Virus record (IMG/VR): IMGVR_UViG_3300036846_000255 | Coordinates: 1-19,577 of that record | Origin: a virus | Reading direction: 5' to 3' (one strand) | Length of the DNA: 19,577 bases | Shown: piece after piece, positions 7,236-19,577 of the stretch | How the letters are laid out: each line of letters starts with the position of its first letter | Numbering within the stretch: position 1 is the stretch's first letter | The notes under the pieces: generated by a model | Databases searched by the model: none | What the model saw: only the letters and a program-made list of their open reading frames with translations | Told to the model about the DNA's origin: nothing | Position numbers and translations under genes: made by a program

Positions 7236-7795
7236 ACTTGAACCCTGAATTTTTAGAAGACGCTTTGAAACCAGAAAAGAACTACATGGCGAACATGCCT
7301 GCACGTTGGGAAGTTGTATCAGTAAATCCGAACTATGAAGTTTCAGATTTAGGTGAGGTTAGAAATATTAAAACTGGACGTATTTTAAAACAGAAAGATA
7401 GAAATGGATACGCTGCTGTTAATTTATCTTATGAAGGTAAAGTGAACACCTATAACGTTCATCGTTTAGTAGCAGAAGCTTTCTTAGATAATCCAGAAAA
7501 CAAAACTCAAGTAAATCATAAAGACGAAATTAAAACAAATAATTCATTAGTTAATTTAGAATACGTAACACCTCAAGAAAATATTGAATATTCTAAAGCT
7601 ATTCAAGTAATCGGTAAAGACATTCATGGGAATATTGTAATGGAATTTGAGTCATTAACAGAAGCTGGAAGACAAGGTTACTTCCCTAACTATGTCAAAC
7701 GTTCATTTTTGTATCATGTCCCTTATAAAGGGGTATATTTTACAATCATGCCACCTAAAGCACAAGAATATAAGGAGCGTAAACTATGGCAATAA
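7232..7795 (+). CDS. Free-standing HNH homing endonuclease (NUMOD4 + HNH_3 pattern)
   Basis: The NUMOD4-like part is [29 protein letters not shown]...NGYAAVNL...VHRLVAEAF. The HNH part is [24 protein letters not shown], as in I-HmuI-type enzymes. The gene overlaps both neighbours (ATGA at 7232; 10 nt at 7786). Confidence 0.85.
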
Positions 7796-9786
7796 CAAAA
7801 GAACAATTCGCAAATGCTAAAATTGATGAGTCTTTCGGGATTTCAGATGATGTGTTAGTTAAATATGTACAAACAAGTGTTTCAGGTTCTAGGTGGTGGC
7901 GTTACTGGAAGGATGACGCTGCTAAAATTAAACAAACATTTGATATCGCAAGACAAAATGGTATGTCAGCAGCTCTCTTAGTTGTAAAAGAGAAGGTAGA
8001 AGGTGTTGGTTTTACTAACGGTGATATGGACGGGTGGGGTAACCACTTTGATCATCCAAACGCTGACCCTATGGTAGACTTAGCTAATTATGCACAAGCA
8101 ACTGTTACAGTAGCTAACTCAACAGCTTACAATCCTTCTTGGGTTGATATGGGTAACCCTGTTAACTGTGTACCTAACGGTGTTATAGCTGAAGGAAATG
8201 CAGACTTTGCTTCTACTCCTACAGGAACAATCAAACGCGCTTATGTACCAATGACAGCAGCCACAACTTGGGCTTATTATTATCCCCAAGCATTAAACGC
8301 TAGCGTAAATGGTGTTCAAACATACGGGAACCCTATTCAACAGTGTACAGATTACTTAAATGAAATGGGGGCTAAAATTACAGGTTCTGGTGGTGCTGGT
8401 GATGGTGGTACAGCTCCAGAAGGTGGAGGTAATGATGTAAAACCAGGAGAGCCAAACCAAAACAAACCTTTAGAAGGTAGTGGAACGAGTTCTTTTGACC
8501 CAACATCTATCATCGAAGCTATTCAAAAAGCGATTAAACAAATTTTAGATTTACTCACACAAAACTATTCACAAGAAAAATTATCCATTTACGGTTCTAA
8601 AACAGGTTTAATGTTTACCCAAGTAAATAAGAACTATGTTTTTGCTTATGATTTTTTCAATGATAACGTTAAATCTATCAGTGATACGTTAAGTGATGTA
8701 GTTGGTGATGAGTTACAAAACAGTGGAGCTATTCAAGATGAATTACCCAACGGTGTAAACCAAACAGTTGAAATACTCTTAACTAGAGCGTTGAAATATG
8801 TCGATAGTGAAGTTTTATATGATGAAGCCAAAGACGGAAACCCTGAAAATGGAGCGACCGATAATGCTCGTTTCATGTCTTGGTGTGTTCAAACCATTCA
8901 CCCTTCTCTAAAAGGTGCATCACATAAAGATTTTTTCAATCGTTTTAATGCTGCAGGTTATGTGAGACATCGAGGGTTATGGGCTGACATTTCTAAACAT
9001 ATCCAAATAGGGGATATTATCTGTTGTGCAGATAATTTAACAATTGATACAGGCGGTAAAGAATACTTCATCGCTTTAGGTGATGATGAATGCATAGAAG
9101 CTTACCCCTGGGAGAATGGAGAGAGAAGTAGTAAAGGTGGTAAACCTGTAGCAAAAGGAGTAGCTAAATTTAAGCTTTCTGAAAGAACTGCTTTGGGTTG
9201 TGCTGACATCGCTATTATTCGTGTATACACACCTAAAGAAGTAGAAAACGATACACCTTCAACACCAAATCCACCGTCTGGTAGTGTTAATTCAGCATTA
9301 GCTCACATTGCTTCATTTATGGGGCGTACGATCGGGTCTGGTCAGTGTTATGCCTTATGTGCTGAATTCGCTGGTGTATTAGGAGGTCCAGGACTTGGCG
9401 CAGGGACTAAGTATAGTATTTCTGGTTTAAGTGGTCAGGGGTCAACAAGTGCTGCTGCGGATATCGGTATTTGCTACAAATGGAGTGCTTATGGGTGGAC
9501 GATGATACAAAACCCTTCTTTATCACAAATCGTTCCAGGATGTATCTTAAACATTAATAGAAGTGTAAACGTAACTGAATCTATGGGTGAAGGTACTTCT
9601 GCTTGGTTTAACTGGACATCTGACCCTACTTACGGTCATACAGTTGTAGTTGAGAAAGTTAGTGGAGATAACCTTACTGTTCTTGAACAATGGGGTGGTA
9701 GCCGTCAATATACCATGAGAAACATGATGAAATATTCTGGTACTGGTGCATCGGGAATCTCAAGTATTTGTATTCCTCCTAGTTAA
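7786..9786 (+). CDS. Multidomain virion or tail-associated peptidoglycan hydrolase (C-terminal CHAP domain), phi29 gp13-like role
   Basis: The C-terminal ~165 aa show the CHAP pattern ([12 protein letters not shown] with the Cys, [10 protein letters not shown] with the His). A Gly-rich linker ([17 protein letters not shown]) follows an N-terminal ~195-aa domain, much like the gp13 domain layout. The middle region has an NlpC/P60-like outline (FMSWC ... IGDIICC) but no clear His. SD is AAGGAG. Confidence 0.7.
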
Positions 9787-9820: not shown

Positions 9821-9855
9821 AAAACAAGCCCGCTCTAGGCGGGCGTTTTTCTTTA
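9821..9855. terminator. Bidirectional intrinsic terminator between the convergent arms
   Basis: The GC stem gcccgc (9828-9833) pairs with gcgggc (9839-9844) around a 5-nt loop. It is flanked by aaaaacaa upstream and gtttttcttt downstream, so each strand reads a hairpin followed by a U-tract. Confidence 0.8.
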
Positions 9856-12717: not shown

Positions 12718-13572
12718 CTATGTGATACTAAATGTGATAGGTTCAACGAAAATAGGTGTTGTTCCAGATTTTGAAGCGATAGAGCAAACCCCTGTAGGTC
12801 TTACATAAATTTTTGCTGCATCTGTTTGTGTAGCACTTTGACCTGGTAGCAAGTAGTGATATTCGTACGACCCAGATGCTGGAGGTCTGAAACCTTCCGG
12901 CAAAGTGAAGCAATCCCCAACACCGTTATTCGTTGTGTTATGAGCAAGTGTGCCACGCATGTATACAATACCGTTTTGACGTTTGACTTGAATGGTTTTT
13001 GAAGCTGTGAACGGTTCAATCATTGTAACATCTCGCCATGTAGTATCAACTACTTTAGTTTCTAATGTATTTAACCTTGTGTTTTGTGTCGCGTTGATAG
13101 ATACTTGAGTGTTTATTTCAGTATCAATTTTTGAGTTTGCTGTTGTGATTTGTTGGTTAATTTCATCGAATTTAGCTGGATAGGTCATTACTTCAGTTTC
13201 TAAATCACTTAAACGGATGTTAATACCTGTAAAACTTCCTTCAATGTTACTCACCCGATTAATTAAATCGTTTAATGCTACAGTCATTTCTTCTTTATTA
13301 GCTTTTGTATCATTTAATTGAGTACAGTAATCAACAAGTTCTTGAATTTGTTGTTTGATTACATCATCCTCAGTTTCTAACAATTCAACTCTAGTCAATA
13401 ATTCGTTAATAATCTCTTCATAATTATCAAATAGTAATTCTTTGTACACGTTCTTGATTTTAATAAAAATACGACCAGCTCTATCAGCTACCATGTCTAA
13501 TTCTTTACTAGTGTTAAGAGGAAGGGACTCAATGTCCCTAACCTCTAATGTTTTTCTGACGAAATCTTCCAT
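12718..13572 (-). CDS. Tail fibre / receptor-binding protein (coiled-coil stalk plus C-terminal beta head)
   Basis: About 170 aa of heptad-rich sequence (ELLTRVELLETEDDVIKQQIQELV..., NIRLSDLETEV..., NTRLNTLETKV) precede a C-terminal domain with the W.DV...G.VYMRG.L....LPEGFRP pattern common in phage fibre tips. I set the start at 13572 because GAAGGAGAG lies 7 nt upstream. Confidence 0.65.
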   Translation of the reverse strand: MEDFVRKTLEVRDIESLPLNTSKELDMVADRAGRIFIKIKNVYKELLFDNYEEIINELLTRVELLETEDDVIKQQIQELVDYCTQLNDTKANKEEMTVALNDLINRVSNIEGSFTGINIRLSDLETEVMTYPAKFDEINQQITTANSKIDTEINTQVSINATQNTRLNTLETKVVDTTWRDVTMIEPFTASKTIQVKRQNGIVYMRGTLAHNTTNNGVGDCFTLPEGFRPPASGSYEYHYLLPGQSATQTDAAKIYVRPTGVCSIASKSGTTPIFVEPITFSIT

Positions 13573-13573
13573 A

Positions 13574-14362
13574 TTAATACTCTCCTTCAATTCCAGAAAT
13601 TGTAAATCCTGTATCAGATGTGAAAGTTGCGCTACCGTCTGGTTTATGAGTGACTAAACGACATTCATCATATTTCAACACGATGTTGTCTCGTACCATG
13701 CTTAACTTCATTCGTACTTGGTAGGACTCATCAATTGTTCCGGCTACAGCTGAGAACATCAATTGTGGGTTATCAACTGCAGGCACTTGAACTCTAAACA
13801 TCGTACCTAATCCTTCAATTGTGAAGATCAATGAACGGAAGCGGCGTGTAGAAACAGCTAAGTTCATGTTTTGACCTACAGAAGCTGCTGTGTCTCCTTT
13901 CTTCCAAAGAATAGATACCTGTGGAATTCGTTTCCAGATAAGTGAGTTGTTGTTACCCCCACCACTACCTGTATTGTTTGATGTGTTTAAATACCATAGA
14001 GATCCTGACTTTTGAATAGTCATAAGGTAAGTCTTACGTCGGTTATCCTCACCCCATACTTTCATTGTAATCAAGTCACCAGGTACAGCATCGTCAGGGA
14101 CGGGTACTTGGTCATCCCATGAGTAAACTGTTGCGTACGTGCCAAAGGGTAAATCCCAAATACTATACTTTTCATTTAAGTAATTGTCTTTGTAAGCATG
14201 TCCATGTGCTTGACGAAAAGCGTTTGAACTCATTAATCCGTTATTCAATTCTGTTGCTAGCATGTGTGGGTTCGTACCATCACCATCTGAGTGACTACCG
14301 AACTCTTTAGCTAGTTTATTAACAGCATTTTTTAATTTTAAAATCTCTTCATTTGTATTCAT
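13574..14362 (-). CDS. Second tail fibre / appendage-like protein
   Basis: The short N-terminal helix and HMLATELNNGLMSSNAF resemble the A..aGlMS motif of phage fibres. The remainder is beta-rich with a G/N loop (NTGSGGGNNN). It lies in the tail module and its SD is AGGAGG. Confidence 0.55.
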   Translation of the reverse strand: MNTNEEILKLKNAVNKLAKEFGSHSDGDGTNPHMLATELNNGLMSSNAFRQAHGHAYKDNYLNEKYSIWDLPFGTYATVYSWDDQVPVPDDAVPGDLITMKVWGEDNRRKTYLMTIQKSGSLWYLNTSNNTGSGGGNNNSLIWKRIPQVSILWKKGDTAASVGQNMNLAVSTRRFRSLIFTIEGLGTMFRVQVPAVDNPQLMFSAVAGTIDESYQVRMKLSMVRDNIVLKYDECRLVTHKPDGSATFTSDTGFTISGIEGEY

Positions 14363-14372
14363 GTCTTTCCTC

Positions 14373-15806
14373 CTAGTATGCGATAATGTCTGTTAAAGCA
14401 GCATTACCAATCGGTTTTAGTGTAGCTGTACGCTTAGAAATATCAATCTCTAGTACGTGGAAACCTGCTTGTGTATTCGTACCAACTTTATTAGAGTCTG
14501 CTGGATAAGCCTGACGTAAACTAATAATGTTGAAAGCTTGCAGTGTTCCTTTAGGTGATACACGGTCTAAGTGTAAATGTCCATGTGCATAACCGATGAA
14601 TTTAGATGTTTCACGAGCTTCAAAAGCTGCCATGATATCCACTAAACGTTGTCCGTTCTTCATTTTTGTTACGTCTAAATCATGATGACCCATGACTAGG
14701 ATATTGTAGTTTGCTTCTAGTGTTGTAAGTTGTCCTTCCAAGAAGTTTAATTGAGCTTCACCCACTCCACTATCAAAAGATAGCATTTCTTGGTAAGTTA
14801 AGTCCATTGTATTCAACCATACAATAGCTACTTGTTGGTTAGGAATTTTGTGTGTTCCATAAGGTGCATTACCGTAAATCTTAGATAATTCTGTTGCTGT
14901 TAGGATCTCTTTCTCATGTCTAGCCTTACCATCACGTAAATAAGGAAGTCCACCAATGTCATGGTTACCAATTAACATGAATGTGTCGACTGGTTCGTTC
15001 ATTACCAAAGCGTTTGCTACTTTACGAGCTGCTGTTAAGTTAGAGTATTTCACACGTTCTGGTGGAATGACTGCAGCGTTGTCTGTTACCTGACCGTTAA
15101 TACCATCCATGTTATCACCCATATAAAACACTGAGTGAGTTTCACGAGCGACATCTTGAATGTTGTGAATAGAATCGTAATACTGGCGAGAACTAAAACC
15201 GTTGATATCTGTTCTTAAATGAATGTCAGTTACAAGTGTTAAGTTTGTGATGTTAGGGTCATTTTTTACTAACTGGTTCTTCACTTGTTGTTGATTACTT
15301 TGAGTAACTAAATCTGTGTTGTATTGATTAAAACCACCAATCATTACAGTAGAACCGTCTACATTGATTTCATCAACTCGGTCAATTAATGTTCCTACGT
15401 GTTCATCTAATTTGTAAATCATTGCGTACAAATCTTTAACGAACAATCCATCTTCTTTAGCTTCTACAGCATTTTGTAGTTCCATTAAAAGTGGTTTAGG
15501 TAGTAAACTGTTTAATTGTGCGTCTCCTGTAGCTGCTGAAATTAAGACATCTGCTTTAATTTTAATGACCTCTTCTAAATCGAAATTAGGGTCTAATTCA
15601 GCGATGAAATCTCCAATCTTAGTTAAATCTACAGTGTTTGTGTCTTCTACTTCTACATCCCGGTTAATTAAACGTGCCACTAATTTCATTACACTATCTA
15701 ATTGTTCATTGATAGCACCTAAATATTCTAAATAGCTCTCTGCATTTGTAGTGAAGTCTTGTTTGATGTTGTAGTTAGGGTTACCAAATCTAGATAAGTT
15801 ATACAT
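14373..15806 (-). CDS. Tail-module protein with a calcineurin-like metallophosphoesterase domain
   Basis: All five MPE motifs occur in order: D194-I-H196, G230-D-NM-D234, G280-N-H-D283, GHH (H374/H375) and G409-H-L-H412, plus an EAQLNFLEGQL helix. The N-terminal ~185 aa are unassigned. The gene lies directly after the lower collar gene, where phi29 has gp12. SD is AAGGAGAG. Confidence 0.8.
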   Translation of the reverse strand: MYNLSRFGNPNYNIKQDFTTNAESYLEYLGAINEQLDSVMKLVARLINRDVEVEDTNTVDLTKIGDFIAELDPNFDLEEVIKIKADVLISAATGDAQLNSLLPKPLLMELQNAVEAKEDGLFVKDLYAMIYKLDEHVGTLIDRVDEINVDGSTVMIGGFNQYNTDLVTQSNQQQVKNQLVKNDPNITNLTLVTDIHLRTDINGFSSRQYYDSIHNIQDVARETHSVFYMGDNMDGINGQVTDNAAVIPPERVKYSNLTAARKVANALVMNEPVDTFMLIGNHDIGGLPYLRDGKARHEKEILTATELSKIYGNAPYGTHKIPNQQVAIVWLNTMDLTYQEMLSFDSGVGEAQLNFLEGQLTTLEANYNILVMGHHDLDVTKMKNGQRLVDIMAAFEARETSKFIGYAHGHLHLDRVSPKGTLQAFNIISLRQAYPADSNKVGTNTQAGFHVLEIDISKRTATLKPIGNAALTDIIAY

Positions 15807-15819
15807 TTATTTCTCTCCT

Positions 15820-16497
15820 TTACCAAGTTTGAAGGAAGCAACGACGATCATATTCATTGAAGTAGCTTTCCCACAATCCTTGTAGTTTTTTGAATGTCTC
15901 AGCATTGTAGCTGGTGTTTGATGTTTCTGAGTGTCCTGTAGCTGTTGTGTTACCAATGTCTTCCCTTTTAGATTTAGATACGGAATTATCATCAGCATAA
16001 GCTAAATCATTCTTATCTAAGTTCAAATTCACTTGATCTTGAGGGAGAGTGGTGTTAGCACTTCTGTCACTACTTGTAGAATTGTTGTTCGACTGGTTCT
16101 TATTACTTGAGTCTGAGATTGATTTGTTTTCGTTTGCTAAAGCAGAATTGAAGTTGTGATAGATAGCTTCTATTTCTTGTTCATGAATGAGTGAAGTGTA
16201 AACAACTTGAGAAGCAAAGTCCTCTAAAGTTTGTCTACCAATCTCTCTATTTAAGAACCTTAATGTGAAAGCTTTTTTGAAGAACTCATCAACTTCTGGA
16301 GTAGGGAATTGATAATCAGCGAAAAATTCTTCTGTTACAATTCTAGCAATGTCAGAATCAAAACGTAATGCTTTTTGAATAAATCGATAATCTTTGTTGT
16401 TACCTGTGTACTGATTACCGTTAAAGAACTCATTCTTCCCCTCCTTTATCAAGCTTGCTCGCAATACTTGCATTAATGAGACTGTTGTTGCCCCCAT
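15820..16497 (-). CDS. Lower collar protein, phi29 gp11-like
   Basis: It lies directly after the portal gene. The pattern FFKKAFTLRFLNREIGRQTLEDF resembles lower-collar proteins of small podoviruses, followed by an S/N-rich central loop. ATG 16497 has AAGGAGG 8 nt upstream; the alternatives 16518 and 16473 lack an SD. Confidence 0.6.
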   Translation of the reverse strand: MGATTVSLMQVLRASLIKEGKNEFFNGNQYTGNNKDYRFIQKALRFDSDIARIVTEEFFADYQFPTPEVDEFFKKAFTLRFLNREIGRQTLEDFASQVVYTSLIHEQEIEAIYHNFNSALANENKSISDSSNKNQSNNNSTSSDRSANTTLPQDQVNLNLDKNDLAYADDNSVSKSKREDIGNTTATGHSETSNTSYNAETFKKLQGLWESYFNEYDRRCFLQTW

Positions 16498-17452
16498 CGT
16501 CAGAACCTCCTTGCTCATTCATTACTGTTAATGTGCTAATTGCGTTGTCATCAAACAGTGGGTGGATTTCATAACCATATCGTTTATTAATTAAACGACA
16601 AGCATTGTTTCTTGATGTTAGATAAATATTACCGTTAGCAGTTGTATAAGATTTACCAGAATTACTTTCTCCTTCTGATACACCACTTTCTTTATCTACT
16701 CCTAAAGTTGAGAAACCTAGAATAGAGTTTAGTTCGTTTAACGTGTTTTGATACTCACGTTTTAATTCAGCTAACATACCTCCAACGTTAGAGTTGTTCC
16801 ATTCTTTGATGTGTTCGTCTGGATCAAAGTGTCCAGTAACTTTAGTGATAGGAGAACCATTATAAAGACTTTCAGCGATGTTGTTCACTGTTTGGTCATT
16901 AGGCTCACCGATTAAGAATGTACTGATTTTAGCTTGCATTTTAAGAGAGTAACGAGATAAAACAATTTCAGCTAATTCATTTGTATAGTGTTGGATGATT
17001 TCCATATCACTATTGTAAGCTAGTGTTTTATTTCTAAAAACAACAAAGTTACCACTTTGAGCGTTGTCTACGTCTGTAATTTCTTTCATACGTGGTAAAC
17101 GTAATTCTTTAGGGATAACCCATTGAATGTCTTTACCTCTTAAAGGTTTAGCTGCTAGAATGTTTGCGGGGTCAGAAGGTGTCATACGTTGTTTAGATAC
17201 ACCTAACACTCTGATTTGTCCTAAAGCTGTTTCACCTACAATAACATCATAGTTGTTTCTTAGCATCACTTCCACTTTTAACCAATCTACTGCTGGTAGT
17301 TGGTCTGCATTGTAGTATTTAATTGTTGAGGGTAATAGTTCAAGATAACGAGAATAGAAAATGCGGGCAAATCGATTTCTATGATTTACTACCCGCACGT
17401 CTATTTTCTCAGAGAGTTCTTGTTCTATACCCATATTCATGGGTTCAAACAT
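16430..17452 (-). CDS. Portal / upper collar (connector) protein, phi29 gp10-like
   Basis: Several collinear matches to gp10 as I recall it. NRFARIFYSRYLELL matches NRWFIHYLNYLQSLA. NELAEIVLS...QAK matches AELAELKEIISVNQNAQK. LGF...ESGVSEGESNSG....NGNIYLTSRNNACRLINKRYGYEI matches LGI...ERMVTDEVSSND....[24 protein letters not shown]. SD is AGGAGG. Confidence 0.88.
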   Translation of the reverse strand: MFEPMNMGIEQELSEKIDVRVVNHRNRFARIFYSRYLELLPSTIKYYNADQLPAVDWLKVEVMLRNNYDVIVGETALGQIRVLGVSKQRMTPSDPANILAAKPLRGKDIQWVIPKELRLPRMKEITDVDNAQSGNFVVFRNKTLAYNSDMEIIQHYTNELAEIVLSRYSLKMQAKISTFLIGEPNDQTVNNIAESLYNGSPITKVTGHFDPDEHIKEWNNSNVGGMLAELKREYQNTLNELNSILGFSTLGVDKESGVSEGESNSGKSYTTANGNIYLTSRNNACRLINKRYGYEIHPLFDDNAISTLTVMNEQGGSDDGGNNSLINASIASKLDKGGEE

Positions 17453-19366: not shown

Positions 19367-19527
19367 AAGAGTTTCATGAGAACCCAGGTGCTGTGAATTC
19401 AGTTAGAAATTAATTAGAGTTTCATGAGAACCCAGGTGCTGTGAATTCAGTTAGAAATTAATTAGAGTTTCATGAGAACCCAGGTGCTGTGAATACGGTT
19501 AGAAATTAATTAGAGTTTCATGAGAAC
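19367..19527. repeat. Right subterminal tandem array of three exact-period 48-nt iterons plus a truncated fourth
   Basis: The units are 19480..19527, 19432..19479 and 19384..19431, in reverse-complement orientation to the left array. A stub (aagagtttcatgagaac) lies at 19367..19383. The two inner units carry the ctgaattc variant seen in left copy 3. Confidence 0.95.
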
Positions 19528-19577
19528 TTTCGTTAACTGGGGTGGGGGGTCTAGGTTAACGAGGGGTTCACCTCTAT
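19479..19577. repeat. Right inverted terminal repeat (ITR), perfectly matching core
   Basis: It is the exact reverse complement of nt 1..99. Confidence 0.97.

Follow-up and report, generated by a model that had tools for sequence, protein, structure and literature searches.

The stretch of DNA analysed here (the window) is the whole of IMG/VR virus record IMGVR_UViG_3300036846_000255, 19,577 bases in length, and the subject of this study is a 477-aa protein encoded in it, which carries a metallophosphoesterase domain behind an N-terminal module resembling the tail-fibre anchors of picoviruses. The open reading frame (ORF) lies at 14373..15806 on the minus strand and matches PHROG 7158 with E 9e-91. 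The first-pass annotation had given these coordinates exactly, and they were confirmed; it had not stated the strand, and a plus-strand reading of 14373-15806 was ruled out since its translation is full of stops. A Shine-Dalgarno sequence, AGGAG, can be read at 15815..15819 (minus strand), 8 nt upstream of the ATG at 15806 and inside the gap of just 13 bases which separates the ORF from the stop of the preceding gene. The product of that preceding gene (15820..16518, minus strand) was recognized as the lower collar or tail stem protein by PHROG adaptor Ad4 (E 2e-52) and by its similarity to Andhra gp16 (31% identity, E 2e-36), as had been proposed when the phosphoesterase gene was described as directly following the lower collar gene. 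The portal or upper collar gene (16430..17452, minus strand; Pfam Phage_connector, PHROG upper collar connector) comes before it, and both products are presumed docking partners of the 477-aa protein. The phosphoesterase gene thus stands between the lower collar and the tail knob genes in a tightly packed late operon, the coding strand of which is not interrupted by any terminator-like site.

The metallophosphoesterase domain spans aa 186-477 (14376..15251, minus strand) and is supported by Pfam PF00149, by an AlphaFold2 (AF2) model and by Foldseek. The Pfam match (Metallophos, residues 189-412) has an E value of 2.2e-6 and 28.7 bits relative to a curated gathering cut-off of 21.5. The motif order DxH / GDxxD / GNH[DE] / H / GHxH, which supplies the ligands of two metals, is complete in the protein: motif I is D194-I-H196 (15219..15227), motif II is G230-D231-N-M-D234 (15105..15119), motif III is G280-N281-H282-D283 (14958..14969), motif IV is G373-H374-H375 (14682..14690) and motif V is G409-H410-L-H412 (14571..14582), all on the minus strand. 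The five-motif signature reported in the first-pass annotation (DIH 194, GDNMD 230, GNHD 280, GHH 373, GHLH 409) was therefore found in full and at the places given there.

The conservation of these motifs was followed in two alignments. In alignment A1, which contains close homologues with 30-86% identity, the motif residues are invariant throughout. Alignment A3 consists of 14 relatives with 21-61% identity to the window protein, the distant ones (21-28%) having differing domain architectures, and just 13 of its columns are invariant; eleven of these are D194, H196, G230, D231, G280, N281, H282, H374, G409, H410 and H412, which are invariant in A1 as well, and Y316 and Q352 are likewise invariant outside the classical motifs. 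This is the pattern that an enzyme kept active by selection would be expected to show, and the phosphoesterase site looks catalytically intact, as predicted from the conserved residues. The C-terminal residue of the protein, Y477 (14376-14378, minus strand), is aromatic, and in both alignments nearly all members have Tyr there; its equivalent is located at the C-terminus or within a few residues of it in members of the picovirus and BppU_N types, and the larger fibre-like proteins have it where the domain ends. This points to a role of the C-terminus in the structure or in the active site.

The same conservation bears on the idea that the domain is mainly a binding module, in which the metal site would grip the phosphates of a polymer with little or no turnover and the protein would be a conventional receptor-binding fibre. 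The protein is indeed in the position of a receptor-binding protein and diverges as fast as host-interaction proteins do. Nevertheless, all seven canonical metal or catalytic residues, among them the general acid of GNH, His282, remain unchanged in relatives with as little as 21% identity, and the adjoining gene encodes a dedicated receptor-binding-like fold, so that we regard a pure binding function as quite improbable.

In the AF2 model of aa 171-477 the block-mean confidence (pLDDT) ranges from about 50 to 96, and it is mostly above 80 from aa 310. When this model was compared with the PDB by Foldseek, 47 matches were obtained at E<=0.001, metallophosphoesterases exclusively, with the Listeria phosphodiesterase Lmo2642, acid sphingomyelinase, SMPDL3A/B, purple acid phosphatases and Mre11 at the top. 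At the sequence level the whole protein had no match in the PDB at E<=1, the matches coming from per-domain profiles alone: the best, although weak, matches of the family profile were purple acid phosphatases (E 1e-9) and SMPDL3A, and GpdQ (3D03), which we take to be a glycerophosphodiesterase of the metallophosphoesterase class, reached E 0.18. There was no subfamily match in NCBIfam at E<=1, so that no hint of the substrate comes from this comparison. Fold and active site can be considered established; the substrate is not readable from the sequence.

Several more specific identities were considered and rejected. A PPP-type protein phosphatase was ruled out by the form of the motifs and by the lack of a family-level match. 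In purple acid phosphatases motif II reads GDxxY, with tyrosinate as a ligand, and motif I lacks a His; the window protein has DIH and GDNMD, which rules out this identity and leaves a likeness at profile level alone. An Mre11/SbcD nuclease was excluded since no NCBIfam match was found at E<=1 and the complete 19.6-kb genome has no SbcC-like ORF. The PhoD-like phosphatase/teichoicase family (PF09423) did not appear in the Pfam results at E<=10, and GDPD (PF03009) did not match the window protein even at E<=10. Likewise a beta-helix tailspike of the phi29 gp12 type was rejected, there being no beta-helix match in Pfam and no tailspike among the Foldseek matches; the word tailspike, used for the protein in the first-pass annotation, proved to be a loose term, since the predicted fold is an alpha/beta phosphoesterase and not a beta-helix.

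The N-terminal part of the protein could be assigned as well. An anchor module covers aa 1-150 (15357..15806, minus strand) and consists of a loop with the pattern P-x-Y...D-[YF]-x-T-N-x-x-S-Y-x-x-[YF]-L followed by helical segments, as defined by profile A2 and by library hits; its consensus is PWYDDRADYNTNAKSYYDYLA...INRLLxRNIEVxDTNTIDLTKIGDW...LKADVILS...DGLYSPDY. An exhaustive HMMER search of 1.84 billion representative proteins gave 109 hits, about 95 of which cover residues ~2-150 alone, in proteins of 200-940 aa. Profile A2, in which the window sequence is included, matched two fibres whose structures were determined in situ, Andhra gp15 (8EGR) over residues 22-71 with E 2e-13 and P68 gp17 (6IAC/6IAB) over residues 28-63 with E 2e-9. 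In the Andhra structure the N-terminal loop contacts the stem domain and the clip domain of the portal and the collar domain of gp16, it is the sole conserved part of the otherwise unrelated receptor-binding proteins of P68 and Andhra, and the Andhra receptor-binding protein is present as 12 trimers per tail (PMC9710869). Because the anchor is homologous to the N-termini of the solved Andhra gp15 and P68 gp17, the assignment of the window protein's N-terminus as a picovirus tail-fibre anchor, predicted to dock to the portal and the collar, is supported. The region had previously been called unassigned, with the proposal that it could dock to the collar; the homology bears out this proposal and allows the region to be named as a fibre anchor.

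The position of the gene is in line with this assignment. The gene order capsid-portal-collar-fibre is common to Andhra, a C1-like Streptococcus phage, Idefix, SHEF14 and uncultured picovirus contigs, and in the C1-like Streptococcus phage the 'tail fiber' at the same position has the anchor too. The order capsid-portal-collar-phosphoesterase fibre-264 aa protein was seen on DVII01000035.1, a 6.4-kb contig of the metagenome-assembled genome 'Candidatus Coprovivens excrementavium', which is a phage fragment binned as bacterial and not a prophage; this picovirus fragment was the single locus found when bacterial and archaeal genomes were scanned with an alignment of the family for prophage copies, and no prophage was detected. 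Both the homology to P68 gp17 and Andhra gp15 and the gene order bear out the earlier placement of the protein in the position of the phi29 gp12 appendage, and the predicted equivalence by position with phi29 gp12, P68 gp17 and Andhra gp15 is supported.

These data also concern the alternative that the protein is not structural and acts inside the cell, e.g. as an Mre11/SbcD-like nuclease or as a cyclic-nucleotide phosphodiesterase blunting host signalling. Distant relatives do give weak matches of the Mre11, SbcD and CpdA type, but the matches to nuclease families are all far below the curated cut-offs, the gene is inside the late structural operon with the collar and knob genes on either side, the protein bears a tail-fibre anchor module, and the same domain is fused to BppU_N anchors and occurs in the tail-tip modules of siphoviruses. 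An intracellular role is consequently very improbable in our judgement, and the reading of the protein as a structural, collar-docked, enzyme-bearing appendage is, as far as homology and gene context can tell, a strong one.

Comparison of the proteins which share the anchor revealed that their distal domains are exchanged. Further phages have on this anchor GDPD phosphodiesterase domains (in the two proteins P0028 and P0042), a GDSL/SGNH esterase, pectin-lyase-like beta-helices, an M14 carboxypeptidase, or the five-bladed receptor-binding propeller of the P68/phi11 type, and most of the anchors carry short coiled-coil fibres. The first-pass annotation had drawn a parallel with GDPD domains in the tail proteins of some staphylococcal phages; the parallel turned out to be stronger than was recognized there, since GDPD sits on this very anchor. 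An IMG/VR scan with P0042 found nothing and a scan with P0028 returned anchor-sharing fibres without GDPD and nothing else; therefore a GDPD-bearing locus was not seen directly. In the opposite direction, the phosphoesterase domain (PHROG 7158) recurs on BppU_N baseplate anchors, to which it is joined in P0044 and P0057, it is found in large fibre-like proteins of uncultured phages, and in the Enterococcus siphovirus vB_ElaS_B1578 it is part of an 'upper tail fiber' gene that follows Dit and Tal. The Enterococcus siphovirus IME197 has a GDPD tail protein inside its tail module. Such an exchange points to the cell surface and is classic for host-interaction domains, which behave as cassettes; it puts the phosphoesterase into the functional slot that the GDPD phosphodiesterases occupy.

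The rate of divergence was also compared. Identity to the Idefix counterparts is 29% for the phosphoesterase protein, 36% for the 262-aa protein encoded downstream of it, 52% for the knob, 56% for the portal and 70% for the capsid; the phosphoesterase protein and this downstream neighbour are the fastest-diverging of the virion proteins common to other genera. As a separate observation, the record of 'Acinetobacter phage D2SVT' (40 kb; PQ554527.1 and PQ283533.1 were compared) contains the same tail phosphoesterase as vB_ElaS_B1578, with identical match statistics, and the host label of that record may be wrong.

The nature of the host polymer could be approached through Idefix, a Copernicusvirus which carries a full-length homologue of the phosphoesterase protein. 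Enterococci have wall teichoic acid (WTA) and lipoteichoic acid (LTA) besides the enterococcal polysaccharide antigen (EPA). Idefix does not adsorb to mutants in epaX and the adjacent gene of the variable epa region, and these two genes build the decorations of the rhamnopolysaccharide (PMC6356687). The EPA decorations have been described as teichoic-acid-like units with ribitol and phosphate (PMC11269942, citing Guerardel 2020). Teichoic-acid-type phosphodiester bonds in EPA, WTA or LTA are thus reasonable candidates for the substrate.

This type of chemistry on teichoic acid would have a precedent, because PhoD of B. subtilis, which we take to have a metallophosphoesterase-type fold, is described as a teichoicase. 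PhoD is cited as acting endolytically on glycosylated WTA (PMC7086022). It would share the fold class with the window protein and shows no detectable sequence relationship to it (no PhoD match in Pfam at E<=10); together with the exo-acting GlpQ it belongs to the teichoic-acid hydrolases of B. subtilis, and it is a secreted cellular enzyme, not a part of a virion.

A virion appendage with an active enzyme might, however, have a substrate other than the teichoic-acid backbone, and one could consider extracellular DNA in the matrix of biofilms, head groups of phospholipids or glycolipids, the phosphodiester bond between wall polymers and N-acetylmuramic acid (MurNAc), or phosphomonoester substituents. 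Among the Foldseek neighbours there are indeed phosphodiesterases of sphingomyelin and of nucleotides as well as acid phosphatases and nucleases of the Mre11 type, the best sequence matches of the profile among solved structures are the purple acid phosphatases and SMPDL3A already named, and the sequence does not identify the substrate. On the other hand, wall glycopolymers or peptidoglycan are the targets of the domains that stand in its place on the anchor, GDPD occurring twice among them, the EPA decorations are needed for the adsorption of Idefix, and the 19.6-kb genome encodes neither a DNA-binding or capping domain nor a Rad50/SbcC partner. Taken together we find such a different substrate unlikely, though less so than a pure binding module or an intracellular enzyme.

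Based on the above, the following course of events can be proposed for the cleavage of wall polymers by the appendage. The first ~150 residues would fasten the appendage to the portal and the lower collar, as judged by homology, and the appendage would probably be present as 12 trimers, by analogy with the solved virions of Andhra and P68. Residues ~186-477 form a canonical binuclear metallophosphoesterase, which would be displayed on the exterior of the tail. At cell contact this enzyme might hydrolyse phosphodiester bonds in the phosphate-rich wall polymers of enterococci, the candidate substrates being the teichoic-acid decorations of the EPA rhamnopolysaccharide, WTA and LTA; either thinning of the polymer layer or a receptor-destroying step could then let the tail knob and the 666-aa lysin reach the peptidoglycan. 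The 262-aa protein and the head-fibre homologue may have a share in the binding specificity or provide it. Accordingly, the simplest model is one in which the work is divided between an anchored enzyme, one or two binding proteins and a glycosidase/CHAP tail-tip lysin.

The analysis demonstrates the architecture of the domains, the synteny, the anchor homology, the conserved catalytic residues and the modular exchange with other domains active on the wall. Virion presence, oligomeric state, catalytic activity and substrate of the protein are all inferred here, and the complete proposal, i.e. that the gene encodes a collar-attached appendage of an Enterococcus podophage whose outer metallophosphoesterase would cut phosphodiester bonds of wall polymers, is one that we hold to be evenly balanced between right and wrong. 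A bolder version can also be formulated, in which the protein would be an endo-acting, metal-dependent 'teichoicase' representing a new class of phage depolymerases, would strip or cut the EPA teichoic-acid decorations or WTA/LTA, would be kept by every enterococcal picovirus and put to use again on the baseplates of siphoviruses, and would serve as a receptor-destroying enzyme beside a separate receptor-binding protein. We put this version forward tentatively, as somewhat more likely to fail than to hold.

A number of points weigh against the proposed function. The N-terminal 163 residues are of low confidence in the AF2 model, and the window sequence alone, aligned pairwise with Andhra gp15 (residues 16-70), gave only a weak E value of 3e-4, thus the strong anchor match to the solved fibres stems from the family profile and not from the window sequence by itself. 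The metallophosphoesterase superfamily is broad, spanning nucleases, nucleotide and lipid phosphodiesterases and monoesterases, and a substrate-specific signal is absent among the nearest solved neighbours. For none of the homologues did the literature yield virion proteomics, cryo-EM or enzymology. The structural module given in the Idefix paper is made up of tail, connector and major head proteins alone, so the 'virion protein' label given to the homologue in the database rests on inference. Finally, since a separate receptor-binding-like protein is encoded downstream, the phosphoesterase protein may not itself select the host.

Compared with known systems, the window protein is like the P68 gp17 and Andhra gp15 fibres in that its gene comes directly after the lower collar gene and in having a conserved N-terminal anchor with an exchangeable distal domain. 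It is unlike them in the distal domain itself, which is a predicted binuclear metallophosphoesterase instead of the beta-propeller and tower domain of P68 gp17 or the beta-helix of Andhra gp15, and just about the first 50 residues can be aligned with these solved fibres. The twelve appendages formed by phi29 gp12 recognise wall teichoic acid (PMC11476376). The window gene resembles that of gp12 in following the lower collar gene, and differs from it in fold and in the expected chemistry, gp12 being a beta-helix tailspike to which no sequence or fold match was found. There is a functional likeness to the GDPD tail or baseplate proteins of the Enterococcus siphovirus IME197 and the Staphylococcus Kayvirus phages, virion-borne phosphodiesterases which have been proposed to act on teichoic acids. 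GDPD is a TIM barrel, a fold unrelated to that of the metallophosphoesterases. With respect to the PHROG 7158, Idefix and phiSHEF14 homologues, which are full length, 29-70% identical and encoded at the same locus, there is no difference in kind.

The domain has been noticed before. Homologues were found in 53 phage records, 48 of which are Enterococcus phages, and a second, word-indexed search with A1 added one protein. They are labelled 'putative calcineurin-like phosphoesterase', 'phosphodiesterase', 'phosphohydrolase' (phiSHEF14), 'minor capsid protein', 'lower collar protein', 'putative collar fiber protein' or, in Idefix, 'virion protein with calcineurin-like phosphoesterase domain', and PHROG 7158 is labelled 'unknown function'. 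Because it is already annotated in the 48 Enterococcus phage records, the domain itself is no new sighting. In the literature searched no paper was found that characterises a metallophosphoesterase on a phage tail, and the protein is not a topic of the papers on Idefix and SHEF14. A survey of tail-associated lysins in 506 enterococcal phage genomes, in which phage GDPD domains are covered, lists endopeptidases, transglycosylases, NlpC/P60, pectinesterases and GDPD and makes no mention of a calcineurin-like domain (PMC10194240). The window protein would accordingly be a virion-borne phosphodiesterase or depolymerase cassette on a different fold; it is not a categorically new mechanism.

The enterococcal picoviruses of the genera Minhovirus and Copernicusvirus are phage-therapy candidates against vancomycin-resistant enterococci, their adsorption apparatus is essentially uncharacterised, and the phosphoesterase family is conserved across this therapeutically relevant group. 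If phosphodiester bonds of EPA, WTA or LTA were indeed cleaved, a new fold would be added to the virion-borne depolymerases of Gram-positive phages, which so far comprise beta-helix lyases and hydrolases, GDPD, SGNH esterases and peptidoglycan hydrolases, and the passage of enterococcal picoviruses through the teichoic-acid layer would be explained. It would also provide a small recombinant enzyme to dissect or remove enterococcal wall polymers, which could be useful in biofilm work, strain typing and sensitisation. Furthermore the anchor-plus-cassette architecture offers a rule for locating the host-interaction protein in uncultured picovirus genomes, and the anchor module is a natural scaffold for swaps of the distal domain.

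Other proteins of the adsorption module are encoded near by. The 262-aa protein (13574..14362, minus strand; PHROG label 'minor head protein') is a possible specificity partner, and its gene is kept beside the phosphoesterase gene in both Minhovirus and Copernicusvirus. In the PDB the best matches of its AF2 model (pLDDT 78) were chains of the phi812 baseplate (E 7e-9), phage K gp144 with both of its C-terminal domains (E 1e-5) and, weakly, the phi11 host-recognition device, all of which we take to be receptor-binding proteins of staphylococcal phages. Judging from this model, the 262-aa protein probably serves as a receptor-binding protein of the tail, acting together with the phosphoesterase appendage.

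A 290-aa coiled-coil protein (12718..13590, minus strand) is homologous in sequence to the Andhra head fibre gp13, and the presence of this head-fibre homologue at 12718-13590 rules out a head-fibre identity for the phosphoesterase protein. Of the structural proteins it is the most divergent from SHEF14 (44% identity over part of its length), where the counterpart has 619 aa with a CBM22 insert; the Idefix-type Copernicusviruses do not have the gene. The ORF corresponds to the hypervariable SHEF14_15 locus, which was proposed by the SHEF authors as a host-range determinant. The tail lysin of 666 aa, a glycosidase/CHAP protein with a C-terminal CHAP domain, is encoded at 7786..9786 on the plus strand, opposite to the other virion genes; the dual peptidoglycan hydrolase activity of its SHEF14 homologue, ORF11, is the subject of a 2026 preprint. 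On the other side of the phosphoesterase gene, the mechanically defined ORFs of portal and lower collar have 89 bases in common (16430-16518, minus strand), and since the alignment with Andhra gp16 starts at residue 47, the lower collar gene may really begin at an internal ATG.

The window as a whole is a complete linear phage genome, with exact inverted terminal repeats of 99 bp at its two ends (1-99 and 19479-19577). Such repeats are as expected for a protein-primed, phi29-like phage; those of Idefix are 61 bp. According to the ORF list, Pfam and PHROG, the gene products include a protein-primed type B DNA polymerase, an encapsidation ATPase, a phi29-type major capsid protein, the portal, the lower collar, the tail knob, an amidase and the CHAP tail lysin. 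The nearest relatives at the DNA level are the Enterococcus faecium Minhovirus phages Ump, phiEFM12-14, IME199, Zip and phiSHEF14, most of them with about 77% identity over 34-55% of the genome (22% of the genome in the case of phiSHEF14), therefore the genome is a new, fairly distant member of the Rountreeviridae (Sarlesvirinae) that infects enterococci and is related to Minhovirus. Between the convergent genes of the tail lysin (plus strand) and the amidase (minus strand) there is a GC-rich hairpin at 9828-9844 with T-runs on both strands, which looks like a bidirectional terminator.

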